Assembly: GCA_002952755.1 (NCBI GenBank)
Contig: CP025011.1
Span: 1,050,001 to 1,082,000, forward strand
Direction of reading: 5' to 3'
DNA: 32,000 nucleotides
DNA from: Candidatus Saccharimonadota bacterium
GTDB lineage: Bacteria > Patescibacteriota > Saccharimonadia > Saccharimonadales > UBA4665
The stretch's first letter is position 1, and every line of letters starts with the position of its first letter. The translations under genes were made by a program, and so were the position numbers. The notes beneath the pieces are model-generated. The model was not told where the DNA came from, ran no database searches, and was given only the letters and a program-made list of their open reading frames with translations. Shown piece after piece: positions 4,106 through 29,588 of the stretch.

Positions 4106-7100
4106 ATGGGTGGCCGCGTGGTACTATTTCGATATACAACTTTTACAACAGACCAGGTGTGGGGGTACTTTAGAGTGGGCAAGTATACACGCAAAATTAA
4201 AACCTTTTTTGGGCAATCCAAGCGGCGAATTACAAAAATAAGTACATCAAAATATCTACAGGGCAGGCGGGTATGGGCTGGTGGCATTGTTGTAATTATT
4301 CTGATAATTTTCTGGATACTGCCAGCTTTTGCCGCCAAAGCACCAGGTCAGATGGGGTACAGCATCAAACGCGGCGAAGAATGGCTGGTCGCCAACCTCG
4401 CGCCACTCCCTAACTGGCGTGAAAATTTGCGGTTAGATTTTGCGAATAATCGAGTAAACGAAGCAGCGTATGTTGCCGATCATGCCAACCGTCATAGCGT
4501 TACAGATACGTCAAAAACTACAGCAACAATCAACAACCTGCTCGGATCATACGAGAGCGCCTACGAACCAGTACTGGACGAATTAGATAAGCAGCTCAAT
4601 GCGGGCAAAAAGCCGGAACAGGAAGCCATCAAAGACCATCAAGATGATGTCGTCAATATTTACACAACGCTCCAGCTGCTGCGCTTGCAGGCACCTCCAA
4701 CTTCCCAACTTGCGGTACTCACTGCCGTTGACGATACGCAGCGGTATCTAGCGGCTTTAAATGACGCCCTGGGAACAGTACCGCTATCGGCAAGCGATTT
4801 CGCGCAATTGGCTCGACTCAGCTCAATAGGCGTAATTTCACCAGCTGCTGTAACCAGTCTGAGTAACGTAAAAAACAGCCGCCAGTTACATGCGGCACTT
4901 GTTAGCATGGTCAACGACGGGCAACTACCAGCGGACGCTAGCTATAATCTGGATTACGACGTAGTGAAGCACATCGCCCCAACTAAAGCAGCAGCCTTTC
5001 AAACAGAGGCTCAATTTGAAGAAATGCAACGTATTAGCGCCGTGCTGACCGCCAGCCGACCAACAGCCGAACAAAAACAGGCAATTCAGGCGTTCCTGAC
5101 AAGCTACAAACCAGGCCAACAAACCGCGTCAAGCGACATCCAGCCATACGTAACACCAATTGTGTACGGCATGGCACTATCCGGTCAATTGCAGGGCAAC
5201 TTACTAAGCTTAAGTGCAGTGCGTATGAATAGCGACGACCAAGCACTGTTTGATACCTGGAAAGTCGTCCTAGATCCACCAAATCTCAGCGACACCTACC
5301 AAACACTTATGACTGACGCTCAGAGCCAGCCAGCCCTGCATTTGCGCAACCTCGCGCAGACCCAGGCCGAGCTCACCGCAGCGCAAAAGGCCCAGGTAAC
5401 TTATCTAGTAATGCCTCCGGGATGGGGCGTAAATCAGCTGGCAACGCTCAATAAGCAAATGGGTGTAGAAATCGCCGAAACGAGCTTTGCACAGTCCAAG
5501 CCAAACGCAAATCAGGAACTGGCCAGCATAACCATCACTCAACTATCACTTCAAAATGAGCTCCAGCAACTTCAGGCAGCCTACAACGCAAATACAACTA
5601 AGCTGGAAACACAGATCAACAATTTTCAGGGCACAGCAGACCAAGTAACACAGCTCAAGCAAGAGTTAAGCAGTCTCACACAAAGCCAAGCCACAACCAT
5701 TGCCGATTTGCAGGCGCAAATCACGTATATTACCGATGCACACACGACCCTTGGCGGCACCATCACCAACCTGCAACAGCAGCAAGTGACTAATCTGACC
5801 GAGCTTGAGCTACGTGCCGCCACTACCGCCCAAACGATAAGCGACACTACTAAAGCACAGCTGACCGCCTCACTCAACCAGGTCAACTCAACCAGCCAAA
5901 CACTCATTACCAACTTAAGTACACATATTGATAATCTTGGAATCACGCACGTAGCCTTGCGTGATCGACTGAACGATGAGATTACTACCATCAAGAATAA
6001 TTACCAGGAGCTTAAGGCCGATGTCCAAGATCAAATTAATGCTGGAGTAACAACCACTGTCGACTTGCAAACGACGCTTACTCAAACGCGCACCGAGCTG
6101 GCGACACAAACAACTGCGCTCACCAACTTAGGGTCAAGCACGACTGCCCTCACACAGCTTGTCGATCAGGTTAAGAACAATTCCCAGTCCGACTTGCACG
6201 ACCTGCAAGGGCAAATCAACGACATCAAACTCGATCAACAAGCCATTAAGACAGCGACGGCAGATCTGCAGAATATTACACAAACGAGCCAGGCGCTTAC
6301 CAACGAACTGCAAGCGAAAATCAATAGTCTAGGCAGCAGTCAGGCCCAGCTACGCACCGAACTGACCAATGAAATAAACACCGTCAAAGACACCTACGAT
6401 CAACTACGAGAAGATACACAGGCACAGCTAGATGCGGGCAATGCTACCAGTGCGCAATTACAAACGATCTTGACACAGGTACGGGACGAATTAACAACGC
6501 AGAAGGCAAGTGTTGCACAGCTTGGTTCTTCGCACGATGTGCTGAGCCAGTTAGTTGGACAGATAAAAACGACATCCGAGACCGGGCTAACAGATCTGCA
6601 GGTGCAAATTGGAGCCGTGCATCTCGACCAACAAACTACGCAAACTGCAGTAAACAGCCTACAGTCTATTACGCAAACAAGCCAGGCGTTGATTAGCGGG
6701 CTGCAAGCCCGGACGGACGCTCTGGATAGCAGCCAGAGTCAGTTGCGACAAGAGCTAACAGCCGATATTCAGACTGTACAGTCCGACTACACCACGTTGA
6801 CTGCTGGCTTACAGGCCCAAATTAATGCCGGTATAGCTACAACCACCAGCCTTACCACATCACTGCAAACTATTCAGAGCAATCTAGTAGCGCAGGCTGC
6901 CGAGCTCGCATCCCTAGGAACAAGCCATACCACACTGACCGCACTAGTAAACCAAGTCCAAACTACGGCCAACGCGCAAACAGCAGATCTGCAAGGCCAG
7001 ATTAATGCCCTTGATATCAGCAGCCAAAGTGTGAAACATTCGCTCGAAAGCCTGGCTGCCAAGCAAGCTGCCGACCTCACTGGCCTCACTAATCAATTAG

Positions 7101-7819
7101 CAGATCTGCATGTCGTACAGATCGAGGCCCAGGCGGACATCGCCGATTTGGTACAAGCTCAGGCTTCCACCCAAGCAGATACAAACGCGCTGCACACCGG
7201 ATTCGATACACTACAAACCACGCTGCAAGATAGCCTGACAGTGCAGGCCTCCATCCAAGCTGATCTCAGTAATCAGCAGTCAGAACTGGATACGATCACT
7301 GCCCAAACCCAATCGGCTCTCGATACCCTTACCGCCCAACAATCCATTCTTGATGCCCAGCTCACCAATATCAGCAACAATACCACGAGCCTCAGCCAGG
7401 CGATCAATACTGTACAGACCGCAGCTAATACCACACAAACCACGCTCGATACACTGCTCGCTAACGCGCCGTGGGCCATTCCCTCTGGCACCTATGTTAC
7501 GCAAGCCGATTTTAATACCCTGACTGCTCAACTAAATACTCAATTCGCCCAAAAAGCAGCCCAGCTCGACGCCCAATTTCAGGCTTACCAGCAAACGCTC
7601 AACGCCTCAGTCGACCAGCTCAACACGCAACTAAACAACCTGAGTACAACGGTCACCAATACGGCAAATGCCCAAGCTGCAACGCAAGTGCAAGTCAATG
7701 GCCTGAGCACCACCGTTACTACCAACCAAACCAGTGCCCAAAATCAGATCAATACGCTTAGCAGCCAGGTACAAACGCTCCAACAGCAAGTCCAACAATT
7801 GCTGCATCCCGGTTTATAG
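4106..7819 (+). CDS. Giant (1237 aa) secreted or membrane-anchored Q/T/L/A/S/N-rich repeat protein, predicted extended coiled-coil; function unknown
   Basis: Uninterrupted 3.7-kb ORF. It has a basic N-region, then the hydrophobic segment GGIVVIILIIFWILPAFA-AKAPG (signal peptide with an AxA site, or a signal anchor). A roughly 400-aa non-repetitive domain follows, then about 750 aa with heptad-like L/I/V spacing, no Cys and almost no aromatic residues. The start is uncertain: ATG 4106 or GTG 4175. Confidence 0.85.
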   Translation: MGGRVVLFRYTTFTTDQVWGYFRVGKYTRKIKTFFGQSKRRITKISTSKYLQGRRVWAGGIVVIILIIFWILPAFAAKAPGQMGYSIKRGEEWLVANLAPLPNWRENLRLDFANNRVNEAAYVADHANRHSVTDTSKTTATINNLLGSYESAYEPVLDELDKQLNAGKKPEQEAIKDHQDDVVNIYTTLQLLRLQAPPTSQLAVLTAVDDTQRYLAALNDALGTVPLSASDFAQLARLSSIGVISPAAVTSLSNVKNSRQLHAALVSMVNDGQLPADASYNLDYDVVKHIAPTKAAAFQTEAQFEEMQRISAVLTASRPTAEQKQAIQAFLTSYKPGQQTASSDIQPYVTPIVYGMALSGQLQGNLLSLSAVRMNSDDQALFDTWKVVLDPPNLSDTYQTLMTDAQSQPALHLRNLAQTQAELTAAQKAQVTYLVMPPGWGVNQLATLNKQMGVEIAETSFAQSKPNANQELASITITQLSLQNELQQLQAAYNANTTKLETQINNFQGTADQVTQLKQELSSLTQSQATTIADLQAQITYITDAHTTLGGTITNLQQQQVTNLTELELRAATTAQTISDTTKAQLTASLNQVNSTSQTLITNLSTHIDNLGITHVALRDRLNDEITTIKNNYQELKADVQDQINAGVTTTVDLQTTLTQTRTELATQTTALTNLGSSTTALTQLVDQVKNNSQSDLHDLQGQINDIKLDQQAIKTATADLQNITQTSQALTNELQAKINSLGSSQAQLRTELTNEINTVKDTYDQLREDTQAQLDAGNATSAQLQTILTQVRDELTTQKASVAQLGSSHDVLSQLVGQIKTTSETGLTDLQVQIGAVHLDQQTTQTAVNSLQSITQTSQALISGLQARTDALDSSQSQLRQELTADIQTVQSDYTTLTAGLQAQINAGIATTTSLTTSLQTIQSNLVAQAAELASLGTSHTTLTALVNQVQTTANAQTADLQGQINALDISSQSVKHSLESLAAKQAADLTGLTNQLADLHVVQIEAQADIADLVQAQASTQADTNALHTGFDTLQTTLQDSLTVQASIQADLSNQQSELDTITAQTQSALDTLTAQQSILDAQLTNISNNTTSLSQAINTVQTAANTTQTTLDTLLANAPWAIPSGTYVTQADFNTLTAQLNTQFAQKAAQLDAQFQAYQQTLNASVDQLNTQLNNLSTTVTNTANAQAATQVQVNGLSTTVTTNQTSAQNQINTLSSQVQTLQQQVQQLLHPGL
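5735..7050 (+). repeat. Intragenic tandem repeat, period exactly 393 nt (131 aa), about 3.3 copies
   Basis: Landmarks stay in register. L(N/Q)x(V/I)(N/T)xTSQ(T/A)L starts at 5873, 6266 and 6659 (393 nt apart each). LG(S/T)S starts at 6128, 6521 and 6914 (393 nt apart each). Copy 1 (5735-6127) is the most diverged and copy 4 is partial. Conservation is stronger at protein level than at DNA level. Confidence 0.85.
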
Positions 7820-8087: not shown

Positions 8088-8768
8088 TTACTTGGCGGCG
8101 ATGCTGCGCACTGTCTTGTGCTGTTTGCGGCCTTCCTCGTCGACGTGGTAAATGTAGATTTCGCCAAATTGCGTTTCGACTTCTTCGATGCCTGTATCGC
8201 TTACATTTTCCAGATATTTCATGAGTGAGCGCAGCGTATTGCCATGCGATACTACTAAAATATTTTCGCCGTCGAGCAGGCGGGGCAGGATATACGACTG
8301 GTAAAATGGCACGGCACGCTCGTAAACCTTCTGGAGCGTTTCGCCCCCGGGGATGGGATGCGCCCAACTACGGCGAATTTTAGTAAAGGTGTCCTCGCCC
8401 AGCTGCTCTAATACTTCCCATTTATTGAGGCCCGTATATTCACCATAATCGCGCTCGTTCAGTTCGGCATGGGGAGTGTGCGTCAGCTCGCTCTTGCCTG
8501 CGGCTTCGAGAATACCGAGCAGTGTCTCTACAGTGCGGATTTGCTCAGAAGTATAGGCGTGATGCAGTTCAATATCCTGAATAATCTCGCCCAGCTGCCC
8601 GGCCTGTGAGCGGCCTTTGTCGGTTAAATGCACGTCTGTCCGGCCAGTCCATTTGCCTAAAAGGTTCCACTCGGACTCAGCATGGCGGATAAGCATAAGC
8701 GTACCCGGCTCAACGTTTGATTGCTTTTTCGAGGTCTTCGTTGCACTATGTGAGGTATCCATAGGCAT
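8088..8768 (-). CDS. gpmA: 2,3-bisphosphoglycerate-dependent phosphoglycerate mutase
   Basis: [12 protein letters not shown] (RHGxxxWN catalytic motif), [13 protein letters not shown], and [20 protein letters not shown] (dPGM-specific HGNSLRAL.KYL). The start is uncertain among M1 (8768), M3 (8762) and M25 (8696). Confidence 0.85.
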
Positions 8769-8770
8769 TA

Positions 8771-8799
8771 AGTATACGACAAGGAGTAAAAAGTATGAA
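8771..8799 (-). promoter_or_regulatory. Putative gpmA promoter TTCATA-17-TATACT overlapping the eno SD and start codon
   Basis: Minus strand: TTCATA (8799-8794), 17-nt spacer, TATACT (8776-8771). The -10 ends 2 nt from ATG 8768 and 8 nt from ATG 8762, so the transcript would be leaderless or nearly so. Confidence 0.35.
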
Positions 8800-10078
8800 C
8801 ATTGCGTCGATTAAAGCGCGCCAAATCTTTGATTCCCGCGGGTACCCCACTGTTGAATGCGACGTGACACTAGCTGACGGCAGCGTAGGCCGCGCCGCAG
8901 TACCATCTGGCGCCTCCACTGGTAGCGCAGAAGCGCTAGAATTACGTGATGGCGCAGCAGATTATAGTGGCAAAGGGGTCAACCAAGCTGTGCAGAACAT
9001 CGAAGAACGCATCGCACCGGCTCTAACCGGGAAAGACGCTTCAAACCAACGGGCAATCGACCAAGCCATGCTCGACCTCGACGGGACACCGAATAAAAGC
9101 AGCTTAGGCGCAAATGCCATCCTGGCAGTCTCACTAGCAACCGCAAAAGCTGCGGCAGGAGCCGCAGGGCAGCCGTTGTACGCCTACGTTGGCGGCCTGG
9201 CCGATAACAGTACCTTCACGCTTCCTATGCCCATGCTCAATATCCTGAATGGTGGCAAGCATGCCGATGGCTCGACTGATATCCAGGAATTCATGGTGTT
9301 GCCGCTGGGTGCCCAAGACCTGACTACTGCTCTTAAAATGGCCAGCACCATCTACCACCAGCTCGGCAAAGTACTAAAAAACGCTGGCTACGCTACTACC
9401 GTCGGCGATGAAGGCGGGTATGCGCCGAACGTCAAAGGCGGTTCAGACGAAGCATTAGCGCTCATCTCCCAAGCCGTAACCGAGGCTGGATACGACTTAG
9501 GTAAGGAGGTTTCACTCGCCCTGGACGTGGCCTCCAGCGAACTCACGGATGATCACGGCTACAATTTTGCCCGGGAGGGTAAACGCTACAGCAGCAGCGA
9601 ACTCATCGCTATGTACGAATCGCTCGCACAAAAATACCCGCTGGTATCCATCGAGGACGGACTAAGCGAAGATGATTGGGAAGGTTGGCAAGCACTCACG
9701 CAAAGCTTAGGCGGCAAATTGCAACTAGTGGGCGACGATCTGCTCGTTACCAACACCAAATTGCTCGAAAAAGCCATTGAGCTAAAAGCCGCTAATGCCA
9801 TCCTCATCAAACCGAATCAGATCGGCACCCTCAGCGAAACGATCGACGCCGTCACCATGGCTCAAAAGGCTGGTTGGCGAACAGTCATGTCGCACCGTTC
9901 AGGCGAAACCGAGGACACTACCATCGCCCACCTGGCAGTGGGGCTTAACACCGGCCAAATCAAAACCGGCTCGTTCTCGCGCTCCGACCGTATCGCCAAA
10001 TACAACGAACTCCTACGTATCGCCGAGTCTCTGCCGGGAGCGAAGTTGGCTCAGCCATTCGCCACCAAAAAAGACTAA
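8795..10078 (+). CDS. eno: Enolase (phosphopyruvate hydratase)
   Basis: Full-length canonical enolase: [42 protein letters not shown] and [21 protein letters not shown] lies 8 nt upstream of the ATG. Confidence 0.97.
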
Positions 10079-10090
10079 AGGCGCATGCCG

Positions 10091-10096
10091 TATAAT
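10091..10096 (+). promoter_or_regulatory. Perfect TATAAT -10 box 6 nt upstream of the Crp-family gene ATG (leaderless geometry)
   Basis: cgTATAATcatagtATG: the hexamer is 10091-10096 and the ATG is at 10103. No SD and no good -35 (A-rich). Confidence 0.35.
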
Positions 10097-10102
10097 CATA
10101 GT

Positions 10103-10747
10103 ATGGATGTCAGAGAAAAGGTCGCGGCTTTCTTCGAGTCATACCCGCAGCAAATATACCAGAAACGCAAACTGCTACTGCTCGCCGAGGAACCTGTCCT
10201 TTCAGTCTTCTACCTTCTTGAAGGCCGCGTTAGTCAATACGATATCGCTCCAAACGGTAATGAAGTAGTTGTCAATATTTTTAAGCCAGGGGCATTTTTC
10301 CCCATGGCTTCGGCACTGAATGACACTGAGAATCATTACTTCTTTGAGTCGAGTATCAAAAGCACAGTTTGCGTTGCACCAAAGGCAGAGGTGGTGCGTT
10401 TCTTAGGCGAAAATCCAGAGGTGTTACTCGACCTATTGGCCAGAGTGTACCGGGGCACGGACGGCGTGTTGAGGCGCATGGCACATCTCATGGGCGGCGA
10501 TGCCCAGACGCGGCTGGTCTTTGAATTATTAAACACCGCATACCGGTTTGGCGAACGGGAACCTGGCGACAATGTCGTCGTACACATAACTGAGGCTGAT
10601 CTTGCCAAACGCTCCGGCCTCGCCCGCGAAACAGTCAGCCGGTTACTGCAGAACCTAAAGACAACTGGTCTGATCGAAATGAGCCGCAGCAGTATTACGA
10701 TCATACATATCCCAACTCTGGAAGCCCAGCTCGGTACTGCGTTATAG
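10103..10747 (+). CDS. Crp/Fnr-family transcriptional regulator (cNMP-binding-like domain plus C-terminal HTH)
   Basis: N-terminal beta-roll pattern (FYLLEGRVSQY...GAFFPM) and a C-terminal HTH, ITEADLAKRSGLARETVSRLLQNLKTTGLI. Its recognition helix RETVSR parallels E. coli CRP RETVGR. The ORF track starts at 10085. I prefer 10103 (MDVREKV) because of the TATAAT-6-ATG arrangement. Confidence 0.85.
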   Translation: MDVREKVAAFFESYPQQIYQKRKLLLLAEEPVLSVFYLLEGRVSQYDIAPNGNEVVVNIFKPGAFFPMASALNDTENHYFFESSIKSTVCVAPKAEVVRFLGENPEVLLDLLARVYRGTDGVLRRMAHLMGGDAQTRLVFELLNTAYRFGEREPGDNVVVHITEADLAKRSGLARETVSRLLQNLKTTGLIEMSRSSITIIHIPTLEAQLGTAL

Positions 10748-10759
10748 CCACAATGTGAC

Positions 10760-10775
10760 TGTGATGCGTGTCATA
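10760..10775. promoter_or_regulatory. CRP-type operator TGTGA-TGCGTG-TCATA (9/10 match to TGTGA-N6-TCACA)
   Basis: It lies 13 nt after the Crp-family stop codon and 48 nt before the Rnk-like ATG. It is followed by a 22-nt gap and then TATGCT (10798-10803), the same geometry as the box at 11825. Confidence 0.5.
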
Positions 10776-10823
10776 GTCCTAAAATCCATACACCTTCTAT
10801 GCTGGTAGTAGGAGGTAGACAAC

Positions 10824-11228
10824 ATGCACACCACTAATCACCGAAAACAACATGATCTAGGGAGATACTTGCCCCTAGGAGGTTGGTATAAGCGCAGACA
10901 CGACGCGCGTCTTGATGCCCGCATCAAAACCATTCTGGATGAACGCCGAACTACCAAGACACATTACTTACCAGAAGAACGTCTTACGCTTCCATCTATC
11001 TGGGGACACAAAAAGGAAGTACTCACCGGCGACACAATCTATCTAGGCCACAATAATACCGTCCACTCATGCATCTTATCTGCATTAGACGGCACTGAGT
11101 TAGAAGAAGGACAGGTCTCGGTCACTTCACCGATAGGCAAGGCGCTGATTGGTCGGCACACCGGCGATAAGATATGCCTGACAACACTTGACGGCCGACA
11201 CGACTACACTATCCTTAAGATTATTTAG
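10824..11228 (+). CDS. GreA/GreB C-terminal-domain protein, Rnk-like (134 aa)
   Basis: The C-terminal VSVTSPIGKALIGRHTGDKICLTTLDGRHDYTILKII matches the Gre-factor FKBP-like domain (S.SPIG.ALIG...GD......P.G......I..I). Its size matches Rnk, and it lacks a long Gre coiled coil. Strong SD AGGAGG lies 8 nt upstream. Confidence 0.7.
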   Translation: MHTTNHRKQHDLGRYLPLGGWYKRRHDARLDARIKTILDERRTTKTHYLPEERLTLPSIWGHKKEVLTGDTIYLGHNNTVHSCILSALDGTELEEGQVSVTSPIGKALIGRHTGDKICLTTLDGRHDYTILKII

Positions 11229-11811
11229 AAAACTTCAGGAGCATGACGAACGCCAACGTCATCGCCAGTAACAGCCATGCAAAGCTATCGCCACCGCGGG
11301 CTATTACCTTTTGCAACTGACTGCGCCCACGGGTACCTATAGGCAAGATAGCAGCATTCATTCGTAACCAGCCCCAATTGAGCGTTAGCAACCCGGTAAA
11401 ACAAAACAGGCACAGAATACATAATGCGCCTACCCGAAAGGTACTCTCCCACATAAACCACAATGCAAAACCCAAGAAAAACGTGGCAATACCTTGCAGC
11501 CACAGGCGCAACCTCGCAGCCAACAATCCACCAGTCAGACCAACCAGACCGCTCGCGAACATCGTAGTAAAGAAGACCATACAAAGCATACTATTAGGAA
11601 ATCCGAATATTTTGCTTTGCCACGAGTTTAAAACATTCCCACAGCTAAACACACTATTAAGATTGCAGACCAACTGAGTGTGTGCGTTCTTGAGTATCTC
11701 CTGATATTCGATCGTTTCTAAAAATGAAGCAACCAGCCCAAGCGCGCCGCCAGCACTAATAAAGCCATATATCGTTCGTTGTTTTATCATGAGCCGACTA
11801 TATACGATCAT
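11221..11811 (-). CDS. Vitamin K epoxide reductase (VKOR) family membrane protein
   Basis: Loop cysteine pair CNLNSVFSC, then a Ser/Thr-containing segment and the active-site CXXC in a TM helix (LCILCLFCF). About four hydrophobic spans. The start is ATG 11811 or ATG 11790. The 3' end overlaps the Rnk-like gene by 8 nt (convergent). Confidence 0.8.
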   Translation of the reverse strand: MIVYSRLMIKQRTIYGFISAGGALGLVASFLETIEYQEILKNAHTQLVCNLNSVFSCGNVLNSWQSKIFGFPNSMLCMVFFTTMFASGLVGLTGGLLAARLRLWLQGIATFFLGFALWFMWESTFRVGALCILCLFCFTGLLTLNWGWLRMNAAILPIGTRGRSQLQKVIARGGDSFAWLLLAMTLAFVMLLKFSK

Positions 11812-11824
11812 CCCGGGAATGCAC

Positions 11825-11840
11825 TGTGACGGCAGTCACA
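11825..11840. promoter_or_regulatory. Perfect CRP-type operator TGTGA-CGGCAG-TCACA in the VKOR / ackA divergent region
   Basis: Exact 5-6-5 palindrome. A 22-nt gap separates it from TATGCT (11863-11868), which puts the box centre near -41.5/-42.5 of a putative ackA promoter. It shares the 9-mer ATACACCTT (11850-11858) with the 10760 site region (10788-10796). Confidence 0.6.
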
Positions 11841-11909
11841 ACATTTCTTATACACCTTGCACTATGCTTTGCTGTGTAGTCCGTTACGGGTACAATAACT
11901 ATAAGCAAT

Positions 11910-13085
11910 ATGGGTATAGCTGATTCACATGTCCTTGCTGTCAACGCCGGCTCGTCGAGCATTAAGATTGCTGTATTCGACTCGCCAAAGGTGCAAAAAG
12001 TAGCCGAAGCGACGGTAGAAAATATCGGCCAGCCATCTGCCAGCCTCCTGACAGCAAAAGGCCGTATCCATGCTGTTATTCCGACACATGCGGATGCTGC
12101 CACACTTCTTGTAAAGTGGCTGCAGGCATATAGCGACGAGTCGAGCGTCATTGCCGTGGGCCATCGGATTGTACATGGCGGTCCGGCATACGCACAGCCG
12201 CAAACCATCACCCAAGACCTGTTAGAGGACCTCCAAAAACTCGCAGCATTCGACCCAGAGCACCTGCCTATGGAGCTGGCACTTGTTGGTACTTTTCAGA
12301 AATTACTCCCTAAGGCAAAGCAAGTGGCCTGTTTCGACACTGCTTTTCACCATGACCTGCCACAGCGGGCACGCCTCCTGCCCATTCCTCGCCAGTTAAG
12401 CGAGAAGGGTATTCGACGGTATGGCTTCCATGGCTTATCCTATGCCTATATCTTGGACGAACTGCAACGAGTCGAAGGTGAGGCAGCCGCTCGCGGCAAA
12501 GTGATCATCGCCCACTTAGGTAGCGGCGCGAGCCTAGTTGCACTGCAAAATGGCAAACCCATTGACACCACTATGAGCATGACTCCCGCCTCGGGCATCC
12601 CCATGAGCACGCGCGCCGGTGACCTCGACCCCGGACTTGCGCTTTATCTGGCAACTACCGAAGGTTACGACGCAGCACGCTTTAATCATATGGCACATTT
12701 TGAGTCAGGACTGTTAGGCATGTCAGAGACCAGCGCCGATATGAAAAGATTGCTCGAAATGGAAGAAAAAGACCAGCGGGCGAAGGATGCCGTTACTGTA
12801 TTTTGCTACCAAGTAAAGAAGACTATTGGTAGCTTTGTAGCGGCGCTGGGCGGTCTCAACACGATCGTCTTCACCGGGGGTATGGGCGAAAATGCGCCTA
12901 AAATCAGGCGGCGAGTCTGCGAGGGACTAGATTTTCTGGGCGTCAGGCTAGATGAAGTACGCAACGCAGCAGGAGAACGCCTCATATCCGCCGATGGCAG
13001 TCAGACAGGAGTGCATGTTATTCATACCGATGAGGCCATAACAATCGCCAAAGAAACCGCGGCGCACATATTCCCAATAACCTAA
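11910..13085 (+). CDS. ackA: Acetate kinase
   Basis: [16 protein letters not shown] (the N.GSSS.K motif), [16 protein letters not shown] and [11 protein letters not shown]. Full length, 391 aa. Confidence 0.95.
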
Positions 13086-13095
13086 AAGGAGCACT

Positions 13096-15471
13096 ATGGA
13101 CTTACCAATCGAGGGCCCGCTGGACGAAAAAACACTACATAACATACATGCCTACTGGCGTGCCGCCAATTATCTCTCGGTCGGCCAGATTTATCTCTGT
13201 GATAACCCTTTGCTCAAAGAACCGCTCAGATTGGAGCATGTCAAAAAATTGCTTTTGGGCCATTGGGGCACGACGCCAGGTCAGAACTTCATTTACGCTC
13301 ACCTTAACCGCGTCATTAAAGCCAACAACCTCAATATGGTGTATATTTCCGGGCCGGGCCATGGTGGTCCGGCACTTGTCGGCAATGTGTACTTAGAAGG
13401 TACTTTTTCTGAGTATTATCCTGAAGTAACACTAGATGAATCAGGTCTTAAGAGATTGTTCCAAATGTTCTCATTTCCCGGCGGACTCTCCAGCCATGTA
13501 TCACCGCAGGTGCCGGGATCAATCCACGAAGGGGGCGAACTTGGATACAGTCTCAGCCACGCCTTCGGAGCGATCTTAGACAATCCAGACCTCATCACCG
13601 CTTGTGTAGTGGGCGACGGCGAAGCAGAAACCGGGCCGCTGGCAACTGCTTGGCATTCCAATAAATTTATTAACCCAAAAACCGATGGCGCAGTGCTGCC
13701 AATCCTGCACCTTAACGGCTATAAAATCAGCAACCCAACCATCCTGGCACGCATCGAGCATGACGAACTGGAGCAATTACTGCGGGGCTACGGGTGGACA
13801 CCCTACTTTGTTGAAGGCGACGAACCGCTGCGCATGCACCAACTCATGGCCGCTAAACTGGACGAAGCAATCGGCGAGATTAAAAGAATTCAAAGCAATG
13901 CCCGGAATAATAACGACGCTACCAGACCACGCTGGCCGATGATCGTGCTCAATTCTCCAAAAGGCTGGACCGGACCGCAAACTATAGACGGCAAGCAGAT
14001 AGAAGGCAACTTCCGATCGCACCAAGTGCCCCTCATGGTCGATGCCTCGTGCCCAGATAACGTAGCCGTTCTTGAAGCATGGCTAAAAAGCTACAAGCCC
14101 GAAGAGTTGTTTAATGAACATGGCCGGTTGCTGCCAGAACTTGCGGCACTAGCTCCTACCGGCCAACGACGAATGGGTGCCAATCCGCATGCTAATGGCG
14201 GCAGCTTCATGCGGGAGCTCGTTTTACCCGACTTTCGAAAGTACGCCGTGGCAATCCCGCAAAGAAGCGTAGCTAACGAAGGCAATACGCATGCCCTCGG
14301 CCCCTACCTAAGAGACGTTATTGCGCAAAATACTGCAAGGCATAATTTCCGGATATTTGGTCCAGACGAGCTGGTATCTAATAGATTAGAGGCGGTGTTC
14401 GAAGCAACCAAACGCCAATGGGAAGCCCGAATTCGCCCCACCGATGAATCCTTAGCAACCGAAGGAGCGGTGCTCGACTCGATGCTGAGCGAACACCAGG
14501 CAGAAGGCTGGCTAGAGGGTTATTTGCTTACCGGCCGGCATGGGTTGCTACATAGTTACGAAGCGTTTATTCGCATCGTCGATTCGATGGTTAACCAACA
14601 TGCTAAATGGATTAAAATGTCGAACGAGCTACCTTGGCGACACCAAATAGCCTCGCTCAATTATCTGTTAACTTCTCACGTTTGGCGGCAAGATCACAAC
14701 GGGTTCACCCATCAAGACCCAGGTTTTATCGACCATTTACTCAACAAAAAGGCCTCGGTGGTACGTATTTATTTGCCGCCCGACGCCAACACACTGCTTT
14801 CCACTATCGATCACTGCCTCAAGAGCCGTAACTATATTAACCTGACGATTACCGGCAAGCACGATAGTCCGCAGTGGCTGACCATGGACGAAGCCATTGA
14901 GCACTGCACGAAAGGTATCGGCGTCTGGGAGTGGGCAAGCAATGATGCGAGCGACCCCGATGTAGTGATGGCTTGCGCAGGCGATGTCCCTACCCTTGAG
15001 ACCCTGGCTGCCGTCTCGATCCTACGGGCGCACCTACCTGAGCTCAAAATCCGCGTCGTAAATGTTATTGACCTTATGCGTCTCGAACCCGACACCGAGC
15101 ACCCTCATGGTTTGAGCGACCCAGAGTACGATGCATTATTTACTAAAAACAAAGAGATCATCTTCGCCTTCCATGGATACCCGTGGGTTATCCATCGACT
15201 CACGTATCGGCGGGCCAATCGTAATATGCACGTCCGTGGGTATAAGGAAGAGGGGACTATTACCACAGCTTTCGACATGACAGTACGCAATGACATGGAT
15301 CGTTTTCATCTCGTAATGGACGTTATTAACCGTCTTGGCATGAACAGCCATGCTGCTATAACCTTAAAAGAACAGATGCAGCAGAAGCTGCTGGCCCACC
15401 AAGCCTATATCACCGAACACGGCGTTGACATGCCTGAGATCCAAAGCTGGCGATGGGATATTAACAGCTAG
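13096..15471 (+). CDS. xfp: Xylulose-5-phosphate/fructose-6-phosphate phosphoketolase
   Basis: 791 aa. [10 protein letters not shown], the [15 protein letters not shown] signature and [11 protein letters not shown] (ThDP motif). SD AAAGGAG lies upstream, 10 nt after the ackA stop, so this is an operon. Confidence 0.97.
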
Positions 15472-16108
15472 AGTCGATCAGGGCCTGGAGCTTTTCAAAA
15501 GCATCGCGGGGATTTTTGGCTTTGTGAATAAAGCCGCCGGTATTGAGTACTTCGATGCCGCCGCGGACGAGGCCGCAGGCAACATGGTCGTTGATGCCGC
15601 CATCCCAACCGAGTTCGATATCCGGTTTTAGTTCCAGCGCCCGTGTAGCCTTTTCCAGCAAAGTGAGATCGCTAGTACTGCCACCGTGATAGCCTAAATT
15701 GCCACTAAAAACGAGCAGATGCTCGAATGCCTGCAGCAAATCTTCAACACTGCCGATTGTTGTTTGTTGTAGCAAAGCGACACCCGCCTTGATGCCGCTG
15801 TCATGCAGTGCCTCGGCGAACGCGGCGTGGTCAACATCGGCCTCGAGGTGGAAGATAACCAGGTCCGGTTGCAATGCGCGCATCTCCTCAAGGTGGTCTT
15901 GCGGGCGCTGATACATCACGTGCAGATCAACAATAATATCTTTGTTATCCGGGCCCCACAGTGCGCTGAGGGGAGGGGAAGTAGTCGGTGCGAATACGCC
16001 GTCCATGAGGTCAATATGAATGCGTTTGGCAAACGGCTGCACTACATTCATTTGCTCACGGTACTCCTCCAGACTAAAAGCGGTAATCGTTGGCGTGATT
16101 ATGGACAT
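15461..16108 (-). CDS. rpe: Ribulose-phosphate 3-epimerase family protein (divergent)
   Basis: [13 protein letters not shown] (H.D.MDG.F.P), DLHVM, VIFHLEA and ELGWDGGIN match the metal and catalytic positions of the Rpe TIM barrel. The N-terminus is atypical. The 3' end overlaps the xfp stop by 11 nt. Confidence 0.75.
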
Positions 16109-16113
16109 GATTC

Positions 16114-16617
16114 CTAGGTCTCCTCATCTAATTTACGAACCCGGCGAGCGTGGCGCTCGGCATCACTATAGGGTGTTGCCAGCCACACTTCGATGGCGCG
16201 CTTCAGCTCATCTTTGTCTAAAAAACGAGCCGATAAGCTCAGCATGTTAGCATGATTGTGCTGGCGGCTGAGGCGCAAAATCTCGTACGGGTCATCGCTC
16301 ATGTGGCCTTCGGCGTCGACCGGCTCTTTGGCGACGGCTAATCCGTAGAACAGCGTACAGCGCACGCCTTTTACCCGATTAGCGGCCATAGCTTCACCTT
16401 GGCCGCTGCCGCCCATAATGATGCCTGTCTGGCAATCCCCATGTGCCACGGCGCGTGCTGCAGGGAATACGAAATCGGGATAATCGTCGTCCATGTCGAG
16501 ATTCTCGGGGCCAAAGTCAACGATCTCGTGGCCCAATGTTTGGGCAAAATCTTTCAACTCTTGGTAGAGCCCACCATATGCTAAACCTGCGTGATCGGTT
16601 GCTACTGCGATTCTCAT
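16114..16617 (-). CDS. rpiB: Ribose-5-phosphate isomerase B
   Basis: MRIAVATDHAG...GIIMGGSGQGEAMAANRVKGVRC is the canonical RpiB/LacAB fold, with the longer actinobacterial-type C-terminal extension. The start was moved from 16656 to ATG 16617, where homology begins. A 5-nt gap separates it from rpe. Confidence 0.9.
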   Translation of the reverse strand: MRIAVATDHAGLAYGGLYQELKDFAQTLGHEIVDFGPENLDMDDDYPDFVFPAARAVAHGDCQTGIIMGGSGQGEAMAANRVKGVRCTLFYGLAVAKEPVDAEGHMSDDPYEILRLSRQHNHANMLSLSARFLDKDELKRAIEVWLATPYSDAERHARRVRKLDEET

Positions 16618-16755
16618 GAGAATTTTAGTGTACGCCTTGACGTACAACCGGCGCAAGCGTATACCGGAATGGTTGATAACGAGCGGTTCCTTGCAAAAAA
16701 GACTGCCGCTATTAGACTCTAAAGATTGCAGTTAAAACTCATGAAGGAGCGTTCT

Positions 16756-17412
16756 ATGAAGTTCTTTATCGATACCGCGGTGCTTAACGAGATCAAAAAA
16801 GCAGCTGACTACGGTGTACTCGACGGCGTAACCACCAATCCCAGCCTGATGGCTAAAGTCGGCATCAAAGGCCGTGAGGCTATTCTGAAACACTATAAAG
16901 ACATTTGCGAACTTGTACCTGGTAACGTCAGCGCCGAGGTCATCTCTACTGACTTCGAGGGCATGATGAAGGAGGCTCACGAACTAGCCGCCATCGATCC
17001 AAAAATTGTGGTGAAGGTCCCATTCATCGGCGATGGTGTTAAGGCCATTAAAGCGCTGAGCGATGAAGGCATTCGCACTAACTGCACCCTCATTTTCCAG
17101 CCCATGCAAGCAGTCATCGCCGCTAAGGCAGGCGCCAGCTATGTCAGCCCCTTCATCGGCCGCTTAGACGATATCGCTACCGACGGGATGCAGTTAATTC
17201 GCGACTTAACGCTCATCTTCAAGAACTATAACTTCCAAACCGAAATTCTGGTTGCCAGCGTTCGCCACCCTATGCATATGGTAGAAGCCGCCAAAGCTGG
17301 CGCCCATGTTGCGACCATCCCATTCGCCGTCATTGAGCAACTTTTCAAGCACCCGCTCACCGATAGCGGCCTTACTAAATTCCTCGCTGACTACGAAGCA
17401 AGCCAGAAATAA
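16756..17412 (+). CDS. tal: Transaldolase, short (Fsa/TalC-type, 218 aa)
   Basis: MKFFIDTA...[10 protein letters not shown]...VKVP...TNCTLIF...[18 protein letters not shown] lies 6 nt upstream of ATG 16756. The ORF-track TTG at 16726 is an upstream extension. Confidence 0.93.
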
Positions 17413-17429
17413 TAAGACAAGGAAAAAGC

Positions 17430-19451
17430 ATGAATCCTGACCCCCAAGTTGTCGAACAAGCTATTAACACGATCCGCATTTTATCGGCCGCCCAGCCCGA
17501 AAAAGCAAACAGCGGCCATCCTGGCGGTGCAATGGGCGCAGCCGCGTTTATCCACATTCTGTATAGCGAATTTCTGGTTGAAGATCCGGGTGATCCACAC
17601 TACTTTTTCCGCGACCGTTTTTTCTTAGATCCGGGCCACATGAGTGCTATGCTTTACAGCGTCTTAGCACTCACCGGACGAATGCCGCTTGAACAGCTGA
17701 GTCAGTTCAGACAGTGGGGTTCGCTAACACCCGGTCACCCGGAGCGTTCCGTCGAACATGGTATTGAAAATACCAGCGGTCCGCTTGGCCAGGGCCATGG
17801 TTTTGGGGCTGGCGCCGCAATCGCCGCTAAATTCCTGTCTGCCCGCTTTGGCGACTGGATGAATCACGATATCTACTCCTTCATTAGCGACGGTGGTATC
17901 CAGGAAGAAGTCAGCCAAGGAATTGGTCGCATTGCCGGCCGGCTTGGCCTCGGAAACCTCACCATGTTCTACGACTCAAACAACGTCCAGCTCTCCACGT
18001 TAACCACCGCCACCACCCACGAAGACACTGCCAAGAAGTATGAATCATGGAACTGGCATGTCGTTACCATCGACGGGGAAAATGTAGACGACATCCGGCG
18101 CGCGCTCAACGAAGCTAAGGCAGAAACTAAGCGGCCCACGCTCATTATTGGCAAAACCATTATGGGCAAGGGCGCTGTCGATCCTGATGGAAAGCCATTC
18201 GAAGGCAAGGTGAGCATGCACGGCCAGCCCATGTCGGCAGCCGGCGCCTCATTCCCGAAGACCATCGCGGCCCTGGGCGGCGACCCGGAAAACCCCTTCG
18301 TAATTCCCGAAGCCGTCAAAGCACTGTACGAACAGGCCGCCGAACGCAAACGCAGGGCAATTGCCGAGCGCAAAGCAGCAGAAGCCACATGGCGCACGGC
18401 CAATCCAGAATTGTCCAAAGAGCTAGACAGCTACATCAACGGCGACGTACCTCAACTTGATTGGAGTACTATCGCAGCTACGCAAAAACCCGGCTCTGCC
18501 ACCCGCGCCAGCGGCGCCCACGTACTTAGTCATTTTGCCGATGAAGTCGGAAACATGCTCGTAATGAGCGCCGACCTCGCGAACAGCGACAAAACCGACG
18601 CCTTCCTGGCCAAAACACACCCGCTCGACGCCGGCGACTTTAGCGGTGCCTTCCTGCATTGCGGCGTCAGTGAATTCTCTATGGCCGATCTGGCTATTGG
18701 CATGGCGTTGCATGGTGGCGTTATTCCGGTATGCGCCACCTTCTTCCCATTCTCCGACTACCAAAAGCCGGCCTTGCGCTTAGCGGCACTCATGGAGCTG
18801 CCCGTGAAGTTCATCTGGACACATGATGCCTTCCGGGTCGGCGAAGACGGCCCTACCCACCAGCCAATCGAGCAAGAGACACAGCTGCGCCTGCTCGAGA
18901 AAGTACACAACCATCACGGTCAACCCGGCTTACTGGCGTTACGCCCGGCCGATTCAGCGGAAACAACTATGGCCTGGAAAATGGCGCTTGAAAACACCAC
19001 CACACCCACCGGCCTCGTCCTCACTCGTCAAAACATCACCGAAGTTACCGACTTTATGAAGGCACAAGACGCCGCCAAGGGTGGCTATGTGGCCGTAGAT
19101 TGCGATGGGACTCCGGAACTTGTTGTCGTAGCCAATGGCAGCGAAGTAGGTACCGCTTACGACGCGATCCAACTGCTACCAGAACACAAGATCCGCCTCG
19201 TGTCCGTGCCCAGCGAAGGCCTATTCCGTGAGCAACCAACAGACTACCAGGATATTGTATTGCCTAAAGACGTCCCGCGCTTCGGCATCACCGCCGGATT
19301 GAGCGTCAACTTGCTTGGGTTAGTGGGCGACGTCGACCATATCCATGGCCTCAACCACTTCGGCTTTAGCGCGCCATATCAAAAACTCGATGAAGAATTC
19401 GGCTTTACTCCTGAAAAAATCGCTGAGAAGTTGAAGGCTAGTATAGCTTAA
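17430..19451 (+). CDS. tkt: Transketolase
   Basis: 673 aa. SGHPGG, GPLGQG, ISDGGIQEEVSQG (the GDG.l.EG ThDP motif variant), HDAFRVGEDGPTHQPIEQ. It begins 17 nt after tal. Confidence 0.97.
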   Translation: MNPDPQVVEQAINTIRILSAAQPEKANSGHPGGAMGAAAFIHILYSEFLVEDPGDPHYFFRDRFFLDPGHMSAMLYSVLALTGRMPLEQLSQFRQWGSLTPGHPERSVEHGIENTSGPLGQGHGFGAGAAIAAKFLSARFGDWMNHDIYSFISDGGIQEEVSQGIGRIAGRLGLGNLTMFYDSNNVQLSTLTTATTHEDTAKKYESWNWHVVTIDGENVDDIRRALNEAKAETKRPTLIIGKTIMGKGAVDPDGKPFEGKVSMHGQPMSAAGASFPKTIAALGGDPENPFVIPEAVKALYEQAAERKRRAIAERKAAEATWRTANPELSKELDSYINGDVPQLDWSTIAATQKPGSATRASGAHVLSHFADEVGNMLVMSADLANSDKTDAFLAKTHPLDAGDFSGAFLHCGVSEFSMADLAIGMALHGGVIPVCATFFPFSDYQKPALRLAALMELPVKFIWTHDAFRVGEDGPTHQPIEQETQLRLLEKVHNHHGQPGLLALRPADSAETTMAWKMALENTTTPTGLVLTRQNITEVTDFMKAQDAAKGGYVAVDCDGTPELVVVANGSEVGTAYDAIQLLPEHKIRLVSVPSEGLFREQPTDYQDIVLPKDVPRFGITAGLSVNLLGLVGDVDHIHGLNHFGFSAPYQKLDEEFGFTPEKIAEKLKASIA

Positions 19452-29075: not shown

Positions 29076-29588
29076 ATGAGCAACGACGAAACTGAGCTAA
29101 TCGCTCGCATTGTGAATGGCGATACTGAGGCATATCGCACAGTAGTAGACCATTACACAGCAACACTATATCGCCATTGCTTTTACATTATGCGCGATGA
29201 GGATACGGCGGAGGACATGGCGCAAGAAGCGTTCATCCAAGCTTATCGTCACTTGTCTAAGTACGATCCCGAGAAAGGTAGCCTCAAAAGCTGGTTGCTA
29301 ACCATCGCCACCCGGCGCTGTTTAAGTGAACTGAGGCGCAATAGGGCAGTACGGCTCATGGATGACGATATCGTAATTAGTCCACTGCGCACCGAGCAAT
29401 ATGCTAAGGAGCAGGAGGTACACGATGCGGTACTCCGTTTAAAGCCAAAGTATCGCACGGTAGTTACCTTGCACTACTGGCATGGCTATAGCTACGCCGA
29501 GATCGCTGCCGCTATGGAGGTACCGATTGGATCTGTCCGCGGATGGCTCTATCGCGCCAAACAACAACTTAAGGAGGCTTTGCTATGA
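29076..29588 (+). CDS. RNA polymerase sigma factor, ECF (sigma-70 group 4) family
   Basis: Region 2 (YRTVVDHYTATLYRHCFYIMRDEDTAEDMAQEAFIQAY) and region 4 HTH (YSYAEIAAAMEVPIGSVRGWLYRAKQQL). 170 aa. Confidence 0.92.
   Translation: MSNDETELIARIVNGDTEAYRTVVDHYTATLYRHCFYIMRDEDTAEDMAQEAFIQAYRHLSKYDPEKGSLKSWLLTIATRRCLSELRRNRAVRLMDDDIVISPLRTEQYAKEQEVHDAVLRLKPKYRTVVTLHYWHGYSYAEIAAAMEVPIGSVRGWLYRAKQQLKEALL

Follow-up and report, generated by a model that had tools for sequence, protein, structure and literature searches.

The analysis of the 32-kb window (the whole stretch of DNA under study), from a Saccharibacteria (TM7) genome, revealed two CRP-type boxes that, compared across approximately 25 related species, are genuine conserved promoter elements, together with an adjacent Crp/Fnr-family regulator gene whose product probably acts on both of them. 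Box 2 would be common to the divergent promoters of a VKOR-family gene and the ackA-xfp operon, and box 1 would serve a Gre-family gene. All evidence is computational. It shows the sites, how they and their spacing are conserved, which family the regulator belongs to, and the residues of its recognition helix; from it we infer binding by the adjacent regulator, activation rather than repression, the positions of the transcription start sites (TSSs), and leaderless transcripts. In the proposed mechanism, a dimer of the 214-aa regulator would bind cTGTGAC-N4-GTCACAg boxes centred approximately 42 bp before the TSS, a class II position from which it would activate promoters devoid of a -35 hexamer. 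Box 1, conserved and weaker, has a TCATA half-site and would control the Gre-family gene by way of TATGCT (10798-10803), which precedes a short Shine-Dalgarno leader. Two divergent promoters in mirror image would share box 2: on the minus strand, TATAGT (11802-11797) would yield a leaderless VKOR mRNA from the ATG at 11790, and on the plus strand, TATGCT (11863-11868) would direct transcription from about 11875 into ackA-xfp. One bound dimer would then co-activate disulfide-bond formation and the phosphoketolase/acetate-kinase ATP branch. A local regulon of this regulator had been proposed in a first-pass annotation of the sequence, and the comparative evidence argues for it.

Box 1 is TGTGAtgcgtgTCATA (TGTGATGCGTGTCATA), located at 10760-10775 and agreeing with the TGTGA-N6-TCACA consensus at 9 of 10 positions, and box 2, at 11825-11840, is the perfect palindrome TGTGAcggcagTCACA (TGTGACGGCAGTCACA). 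The hexamer TATGCT occurs exactly 22 nt past each of them, and the coordinates previously given for boxes, spacers, and hexamers were all verified on the window sequence. Taken alone, the two matches are statistically weak, given that two boxes with at most one mismatch were found in 32 kb against 0.77 expected and that two or more appeared in 17 of 100 shuffles. Since this window-only count was not significant, a comparison across species was undertaken, which comprised 24 closely related species-level Saccharimonadales loci (267.5 kb in total), with expected counts taken from dinucleotide shuffles. Perfect boxes numbered 18 in these loci against 0.3 expected, a 60-fold excess over shuffles, and one-mismatch boxes 15 against 5.9. 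Intergenic enrichment, for which the first-pass annotation had suggested a test, was found over the 24 loci, as 29 of the 33 perfect and one-mismatch boxes were situated outside open reading frames (ORFs), with non-ORF sequence making up 15.5% of the DNA. A TAnnnT hexamer was located 21-22 nt from almost every box in the 24 loci, and over 22 loci the half-site letters were invariant and the central 4 nt free to vary. The box 2 family has the extended consensus cTGTGAC-N4-GTCACAg, consistent with an 18-bp operator.

Conservation of the boxes and their spacing in orthologous regions, likewise suggested there as a check, was observed for both across the Saccharimonadales loci. Box 2 is kept next to VKOR in 18 genome loci and in five VKOR-anchored metagenome loci (four perfect, one with a single mismatch), and it accompanies VKOR in L003 and L007 even though the regulator gene is 3-4 kb away. 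Box 1 is kept right behind the regulator stop codon in 10 loci, starting 2-33 nt after it, and its promoter-proximal half-site is TCATA in nine of these 10 (the window counted), L024 having TCACT. The class II geometry was also found before a second VKOR type (L010, L012, and L014) and before a class II ribonucleotide reductase (L019). When the 32 kb were scanned with a weight matrix made from the orthologous boxes, the only high scorers were box 2 and box 1 (28.0 and 15.5 bits); the next-best match reached 5.2 bits inside coding DNA, and no further credible site was found in the window, including the divergent gpm/eno and rpiB/tal regions. The adjoining glycolysis and pentose-phosphate genes are therefore not predicted targets, and the word local refers to the span of about 32 kb scanned in the source genome.

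The regulator gene (10103-10747, plus strand, in an ORF opening at 10085) encodes a 214-aa protein with the recognition helix RETVSR and Pfam matches to cNMP_binding (41 bits), HTH_Crp_2 (48.5), and Crp (27.2), all above cutoffs. Its AlphaFold model has a pLDDT of 88, and the best Foldseek matches of this model were CRP, GlxR, M. tuberculosis CRP, and NtcA (E ~1e-15). With a beta-roll of the cNMP-binding type at the N-terminus, a long helix for dimerisation, and a winged HTH at the C-terminus, the protein belongs to the Crp/Fnr superfamily, and it displays the R-E-x-x-x-R helix that goes with TGTGA-type half-sites, TGTGA-N6-TCACA sites adjoining its gene. A total of 741 homologues were retrieved, mainly from Saccharimonadales and mostly of 214-216 aa. 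Residues R175, E176, T177, and R180 were invariant in 27 homologues (R-E-T-x-x-R) and align to RETVGR of E. coli CRP, which bears out the Arg-Glu...Arg triad ascribed earlier to this helix. Regarding its own expression, TATAAT (10091-10096, plus strand), read from the sequence, is the likely -10 of the regulator promoter; the ATG at 10103 comes 6 nt after it, orthologous regulators have similar TAnnnT hexamers 6-10 nt ahead of the ATG, and a leaderless regulator mRNA starting at 10103 is implied. No box was found upstream of the regulator gene in the orthologues compared.

A RET(V/I)xR helix was present in all homologues and paralogues examined, including a divergent neighbouring paralogue in L037 that is 42% identical and carries the same RETVSR helix. 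Because such same-helix paralogues exist, the assignment of the boxes to this regulator rests on co-localisation. The boxes might thus be genuine operators bound by another Crp/Fnr paralogue encoded elsewhere in the genome, the adjacent regulator having other targets; several FNR-family regulators may coexist in Saccharibacteria, five having been reported in one genome (PMC6031116). We consider this unlikely, since at least 20 species-level loci have the regulator gene and a box no more than approximately 2 kb apart, box 1 begins directly behind its stop codon at the short distances given above, and the 32-kb window encodes no paralogue of it. Binding by the adjacent regulator is the more probable reading.

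Neither intergenic region contains a sigma-70-type -35/-10 pair, in line with the first-pass annotation, which had described both promoters as lacking a -35. As there is no -35, each promoter should need an activator, which would act through contact with RNA polymerase. The class II geometry claimed for both promoters, namely a box, 21-22 nt, and a -10 hexamer, is conserved in relatives: all 18 loci have the box-N21/22-TAnnnT layout toward VKOR, 15 of 18 have it on the plus side, and about 10 loci have it at box 1. With TSSs placed according to the -10 hexamers and putative leaderless ATGs, the activator site would be centred near -41.5, where it covers the place of the missing -35.

On the minus side of box 2, the gene encoding the VKOR-family membrane protein (11221-11790, ORF to 11811; Pfam VKOR, E = 3e-26) is, in the loci compared, the most constant partner of the perfect box. 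Judged from conservation, its true start is M8 of the ORF (MIKQRT...), that is, the ATG at 11790, as 17 of 18 loci have an M(I)KQRT start at 33-35 nt from the box and five further metagenome loci have it too. TATAGT (11802-11797, minus strand), the -10 of the predicted VKOR promoter, is separated by 22 nt from the box and by 6 nt from this ATG, and all 18 loci have a TAnnnT hexamer at a distance of 21-22 nt from the box; L017, the sole locus with a longer gap, has a GGAGG Shine-Dalgarno sequence instead. A leaderless VKOR mRNA is implied, with the layout box-N22-TATAGT-N6-ATG and a box centre at -42.5. Given this conserved mirror-image class II promoter of its own at activating distance, VKOR is probably co-activated and not repressed. 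The first-pass annotation had instead suggested that VKOR could be repressed at a candidate promoter with TATAAG (11853-11848); this hexamer was rejected because it is not conserved, and the conserved -10, TATAGT, lies beyond the opposite side of the box. The broader idea of a repressor or dual operator that turns ackA-xfp on and VKOR off at once could draw on the capacity of Crp/Fnr-family members for repression, and a dimer between promoters 85 bp apart could admit one RNA polymerase at a time. However, the lack of conservation of TATAAG, the conserved VKOR -10 across the box at activating distance, and the want of a -35 at either promoter, for which a need of an activator is expected, leave it a slim chance. 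A reading in which the palindromes match by chance, or act as RNA hairpins or terminators, and bind no protein, as the window-only count and a terminator scan marking 11825-11840 (a weak hairpin with a T-rich tail) might suggest, is effectively refuted by the excess of perfect boxes over shuffles, by the position of box 2 between two divergent gene starts, with no 3' end there, and by invariant half-sites around a varying loop, which indicate conservation of sequence and not of pairing.

Co-activation from box 2 would extend to its plus side, where TATGCT (11863-11868) represents the -10 of a predicted class II promoter with a TSS at 11875 and where 15 of 18 loci carry a TAnnnT hexamer separated from the box by 21-23 nt. 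Five relatives (L001, L003, L009, L013, and L037) have the ATG of a SufS-like (cysteine-desulfurase) gene 34-35 nt past the box, an offset equal to that of 11875 in the window; the TSS expected near 11875 therefore coincides with the ATG of a putatively leaderless gene in all five. In these relatives, the plus promoter would drive the leaderless SufS-like gene ahead of ackA/xfp, and by comparison with them the source genome has lost this gene. The ackA-xfp operon (11910-15471, plus strand) is composed of ackA (11910-13085; Pfam Acetate_kinase, E = 2e-107) and xfp (13096-15471; XFP_N, XFP, and XFP_C). In the window the box does precede it, as first described, but the direct adjacency arises from the loss of the SufS-like gene, which comes first on the plus side in several relatives.

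At box 1, TATGCT (10798-10803, plus strand) would be the -10 of a promoter with the box-N21/22-TAnnnT layout and a TSS at about 10810, and a Shine-Dalgarno AGGAGG is found at 10810-10815 (plus strand). The window and L001, L005, L008, L009, L010, L013, L018, and L050 all show this layout with a Shine-Dalgarno leader after it, and L024 departs from TAnnnT with TAGATA at the same offset. The downstream gene (10824-11228, plus strand) encodes a 134-aa protein that had been labelled Rnk-like. The label is right as to the Gre-family C-terminal domain (Pfam GreA_GreB, E = 6e-10), to which the Pfam match is confined (residues 89-133), but the NCBIfam Rnk model scores 26.9 bits, far below its cutoff of 109, and the GreA model 38.6 bits against 167. 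The protein does not correspond to a full-length Rnk or GreA/GreB with the N-terminal coiled coil; its best match among solved structures was Gfh1.

As to what the regulator senses, hhalign places P, M, N, H, V, and L opposite the cAMP contacts of CRP (G71, E72, R82, S83, T127, and S128), a replacement which makes cAMP, or the cyclic nucleotide sensing entertained in the first-pass annotation, unlikely. The protein falls outside CRP proper (NCBIfam equivalog, 41.5 bits against a cutoff of 266), outside the cysteine-cluster FNR type (38.7 against 228), the homologue alignment containing no invariant or near-invariant cysteine, and outside NtcA (TIGR03697, 37.1 against 245), its operators being TGTGAC-N4-GTCACA and not the NtcA-type GTA-N8-TAC. 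The PDB sequence search, hhalign, and the fold search all support the fold, and none names a ligand. Among oral Saccharibacteria, adenylate cyclase has been reported for clade G6 but not for G1 (PMC8386444). More tentatively, and at less than even chances, the regulator may represent a Saccharimonadales-specific Crp/Fnr subfamily responding neither to a cyclic nucleotide nor to O2 via an Fe-S cluster. On this reading the signal could plausibly be a redox, thiol, or central-metabolite one, as the targets include VKOR/DsbA, the SufS-like desulfurase, the B12-dependent ribonucleotide reductase, and phosphoketolase/acetate kinase, and one dimer would fire two leaderless promoters lying in mirror image 85 bp apart. 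Judging by our literature searches, no transcription-factor regulon had been defined before in the Candidate Phyla Radiation (CPR), and this one would be the first.

When compared to E. coli CRP, the regulator is approximately 20% identical with its cAMP contacts replaced, the flanking consensus here is C...TGTGAC/GTCACA...G, in contrast to the A/T-rich flanks of E. coli CRP sites, and two of the targets are predicted to be leaderless mRNAs. Shared with class II CRP promoters such as galP1 are the two-domain fold, the R-E-x-x-x-R helix, the TGTGA-N6-TCACA palindrome, and a site at about -41.5 to -42.5 in place of the -35. One dimer may also serve two divergent promoters, as established for a single CRP dimer in E. 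coli (El-Robh and Busby 2002, as cited in PMC3105977). The Crp/Fnr fold is likewise that of NtcA, the cyanobacterial 2-oxoglutarate sensor, which was the best phmmer match in the PDB (E = 1e-11). NtcA is a class II activator too, but it recognises GTA-N8-TAC, unlike the TGTGA-N6-TCACA operator found here, and the regulator stays well below the NtcA model cutoff, as stated above. Bacillus subtilis Fnr/ArcR-type and actinobacterial Crp/GlxR regulators also have a TGTGA-N6-TCACA core and sense non-cAMP signals or cAMP weakly; GlxR and M. tuberculosis CRP were among the top structural matches of the predicted model. Unlike these groups, the present regulator has no conserved cysteine for an Fe-S cluster, belongs to the Saccharimonadales/CPR lineage, and has VKOR, SufS-like, ackA-xfp, and Gre-like genes as putative targets.

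How genes are regulated in Saccharibacteria, and in the CPR at large, is nearly unexplored, and no description of a Crp regulon, a TSS map, or leaderless mRNA for Saccharibacteria was found in the literature searched. The locus offers a compact hypothesis over about 25 species, consisting of a regulator, an 18-bp operator, and an exact promoter geometry. Its targets fall into three to five families (VKOR, alone or together with DsbA, SufS-like, ackA-xfp, the Gre-like factor, and, in one lineage, ribonucleotide reductase). Under the predicted regulon, disulfide-bond formation outside the cytoplasm would be tied to the principal ATP-yielding branch of fermentation in these reduced genomes, and widespread leaderless transcripts would be expected. 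Class II activation and one site for divergent promoters are textbook CRP biology, and for this reason the conceptual novelty is modest.

Two further sequence elements were noted in the intergenic regions. The 9-mer ATACACCTT pointed out previously is indeed present twice, at 10788 and 11850, with a chance probability of ~6e-4, but it is absent from all orthologous promoters and its register differs (12 nt against 9 nt past the box); it was rejected as a functional element. The second is the conserved element TACAATAAnnATAAGnnAT (11891-11909, plus strand), situated directly ahead of the ackA ATG. As ackA/xfp has this TACAAT-type element besides the box, the box may account for only part of its expression. 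At least 13 loci have the element ahead of whichever gene comes first in the ackA/xfp pair, some of them with an upstream sufS-like gene, and it is a candidate for a second, box-independent ackA/xfp promoter with a very short leader.

The two Crp-type boxes reported by the first-pass annotation were found at their positions when the sequence was re-read: TGTGATGCGTGTCATA at 10760-10775 (box 1) matches nine of the ten consensus positions of TGTGA-N6-TCACA, TGTGACGGCAGTCACA at 11825-11840 (box 2) is a perfect palindrome, and exactly 22 nt separate each from a TATGCT hexamer (10798-10803 and 11863-11868). Box 1 lies between the ORF of the Crp/Fnr-family regulator (10085-10747; Pfam cNMP_binding and HTH_Crp_2) and a gene whose only Pfam match is the GreA/GreB C-terminal domain (10824-11228), and box 2 separates a minus-strand ORF with a Pfam VKOR match (11221-11811) from the acetate kinase (ackA, 11910-13085) and phosphoketolase (xfp, 13096-15471) genes, both assigned by Pfam. 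Taken by itself, the window offers weak statistics, with two matches at one mismatch or fewer against 0.77 expected, a number reached by 17% of shuffles. The 9-mer ATACACCTT, proposed as common to both promoters, does occur at 10788-10796 and 11850-11858 (chance about 6e-4), but it is absent from orthologous promoters, and its register relative to the promoter differs between the two copies.

Conservation among relatives and intergenic enrichment, two of the checks put forward with the original proposal, both favored the boxes. Scanning GTDB species, each represented by a single genome, gave 53 loci encoding relatives of the regulator (related Saccharimonadales loci are denoted by L numbers), and boxes were counted in the 24 close loci, 267.5 kb in total. 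Perfect TGTGA-N6-TCACA boxes numbered 18 versus 0.3 in dinucleotide shuffles, and one-mismatch boxes 15 versus 5.9; 29 of the 33 lay outside ORFs, although non-ORF sequence makes up just 15.5% of the DNA. The aligned boxes yielded an 18-bp palindrome, cTGTGAC-N4-GTCACAg, with invariant half-site letters and a centre free to vary. With the corresponding weight matrix, the two boxes were the only sites recovered from the window (28.0 and 15.5 bits); the runner-up, within ackA, reached 5.2 bits.

When the window proteins were mapped onto the loci, the perfect box always adjoined the 5' end of VKOR, including in L003 and L007, despite a distance of 3-4 kb to the regulator gene, and in L002, L021, and L026, which have no ackA/xfp gene nearby. 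Reading from the box along the VKOR strand, one meets 21-22 nt, a TAnnnT hexamer (mostly TATAGT; 18/18 loci), 6-7 nt, and the ATG of M(I)KQRT; the distance from box to ATG is 33-35 nt in 17 of 18 loci. The 6-7 nt interval is too short for a Shine-Dalgarno sequence, and the VKOR mRNA would be leaderless, with the box centre at -41.5 to -43.5; the sole exception, L017, has a longer gap containing GGAGG. In the window, the minus-strand -10 TATAGT is located at 11802-11797 and the ATG start codon at 11790 (M8 of the listed ORF), and the centre of box 2 falls at -42.5 for VKOR. Five further loci from an independent VKOR search of metagenomes showed the same layout, the box being perfect in four and carrying one mismatch in the other. 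The TATAAG at 11853-11848, from which repression of VKOR by the box had been proposed, is not conserved, and such repression is therefore not supported. A gene encoding a DsbA-like thioredoxin is situated directly 3' of VKOR in L007 (6857-7504), L008 (7201-7839), and L050 (3088-3729), probably forming a VKOR-DsbA operon under the box, and none was found downstream of VKOR in the window.

Fifteen of the 18 loci also carry a TAnnnT hexamer, often TATGCT, at 21-23 nt from box 2 on its plus side. In L001, L003, L009, L013, and L037, 6-7 nt separate this hexamer from the ATG of a gene encoding about 450 aa, an arrangement that places the ATG 34-35 nt from the box and mirrors the VKOR side. The transcription start site (TSS) predicted at 11875 coincides exactly with the position of this leaderless ATG in those relatives. 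The product belongs to the SufS-type class V aminotransferases (Pfam 277 bits; NCBIfam sufS 287 bits, under the cutoff), and downstream of its gene lies ackA-xfp or xfp-ackA. This SufS-like gene is the first on the plus side of box 2 in several relatives (among them L001, 7768-9114, and L037, 7320-8690), a frameshifted or truncated 5' remnant in L004 (7313-7494) and L011 (6702-6862), and missing in the window (11869-11909 compared), L017, L050, L006, L016, and L018, where the promoter leads straight into ackA or xfp; it has been lost repeatedly, with the promoter retained. Another conserved element, (G)GTACAATAAACATRAG...ATG (GTACAATAAACATRAGnnnTATG with an optional leading G), is found at 11889-11912 in the window, with 11891-11909 directly before the ackA ATG. 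In at least 13 loci (besides the window, L001, L004, L005, L008, L009, L011, L013, L016, L017, L018, L037, and L050) it stands immediately 5' of the ackA/xfp pair's leading gene, be it ackA or xfp, even where the SufS-like gene is upstream. The element is a candidate for a second, box-independent internal promoter whose leader would be very short, or for a translation signal; since it resembles a box-independent promoter, box 2 need not account for all ackA-xfp expression.

Box 1 begins 2-33 nt past the regulator stop codon in 10 loci, the window included. Its promoter-proximal half-site is TCATA in nine of them (TCACT in L024), and 21-22 nt further on comes TAnnnT, again in nine loci (TAGATA in L024), then a leader containing a Shine-Dalgarno sequence and finally the Gre-C-domain gene. 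In the window, and likewise in its two nearest relatives, AGGAGG begins 7 nt past the -10, which would put the Shine-Dalgarno sequence at the extreme 5' end of the transcript. The half-site has kept its C-to-T change even though the flanking sequence was randomised, suggesting that box 1 has been selected as a weaker site.

The regulator has 741 homologues, and nearly all of those with a name are called Saccharimonadales, Saccharibacteria, or Patescibacteria. Most homologues have 214-216 aa, so ATG 10103 is the real start. The Arg-Glu...Arg recognition triad noted earlier held up across 27 aligned homologues, which share 57-74% identity with the window protein: R175, E176, T177, and R180 are invariant. 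In hhalign, these residues pair with the RETVGR of E. coli CRP at a probability of 97.9%. An AlphaFold model (pLDDT 88) matches CRP, GlxR, M. tuberculosis CRP, and NtcA (E ~1e-15, ~20% identity), and the central helix carries an invariant RVYRGxDGxLRRMAHLMGG block. The gene appears to have its own consensus -10, TATAAT at 10091-10096, 6 nt before the ATG, implying a leaderless mRNA in the window, and its orthologues carry similar TAnnnT hexamers 6-10 nt upstream of ATG. No box precedes the regulator gene in the window or its clade; one lies just upstream of it in the more distant relatives L033, L038, L046, and L047.

In the class II arrangement of CRP and FNR, the palindromic site lies 21-22 nt upstream of the -10. 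The boxes have this geometry, as had been proposed, and neither intergenic region contains a sigma-70-type -35/-10 pair, which bears out the reported absence of a -35 and fits activator-dependent promoters. In the best explanation, for which the TSSs, the binding, and the sense of regulation are all inferred, one regulator dimer at box 2 would co-activate VKOR and the (sufS-like-)ackA-xfp operon, and the weaker box 1 would activate the Gre-like gene. That one E. coli CRP dimer can activate two divergent promoters is established (El-Robh and Busby 2002, cited in PMC3105977). L037 encodes a paralogue with an identical recognition helix, and five FNR-type regulators occur in one Saccharibacteria genome (PMC6031116); because paralogues share this helix, the assignment of the boxes to the regulator rests on co-localisation, observed in at least 20 species. 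The regulon is well supported in silico and, conventional as its mechanism is, offers a useful way into CPR regulation. Literature searches turned up no account of this regulon, nor of TSSs or leaderless mRNAs in Saccharibacteria.

Further targets have a like geometry. A second VKOR type has a box in L010, L012, and L014, and the order box-N21/22-TATGCT-N6/7-ATG in L010 and L014 looks leaderless. In L019, perfect boxes at 9018-9033 and 10669-10684, each box-N21-TATAAT, precede the genes for a B12-type (class II) ribonucleotide reductase and for a 507-aa protein without a Pfam match, suggesting an expanded regulon in that lineage. Next after the second VKOR type, in the region downstream of the box, comes a conserved gene of about 183 codons (L010 4456-4998, L012 4156-4707, L014 8604-9155, L026 7516-8076); its product (MASAERKAIDKVF...) has no match in Pfam or NCBIfam and, judged by eye, one predicted membrane helix.

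Regarding the signal, the cAMP contacts G71, E72, R82, S83, T127, and S128 of E. coli CRP are replaced by P, M, N, H, V, and L (hhalign), the 27-homologue alignment has no conserved cysteine, and the regulator scores far under the cutoffs of the NCBIfam CRP, Fnr, and NtcA models. For these reasons, cAMP and an FNR-type Fe-S cluster are both unlikely, and cNMP sensing, one of the options envisaged by the first-pass annotation, loses ground as far as cAMP is concerned. Adenylate cyclase distribution is patchy among Saccharibacteria (PMC8386444). From the targets (VKOR/DsbA, the SufS-like gene, ribonucleotide reductase, and the fermentative ATP branch), one could speculate about a redox or metabolic cue.

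Carbon-metabolism genes surround the regulon (8088-10078 and 15461-19451), encoding a phosphoglycerate-mutase-like histidine phosphatase, enolase, ribulose-phosphate epimerase, RpiB, transaldolase, and transketolase, and none of these genes has a box. Elsewhere in the window, a 1237-aa ORF (4106-7819) rich in Q, T, S, and L, with an N-terminal hydrophobic segment and long internal repeats of coiled-coil appearance, may encode a surface or filament protein. At 29076-30523, precomputed Pfam hits (Sigma70_r2/r4) of the matching locus L054 indicate an ECF-type sigma factor, and a 312-aa protein without a family comes next, making a possible sigma/anti-sigma pair.
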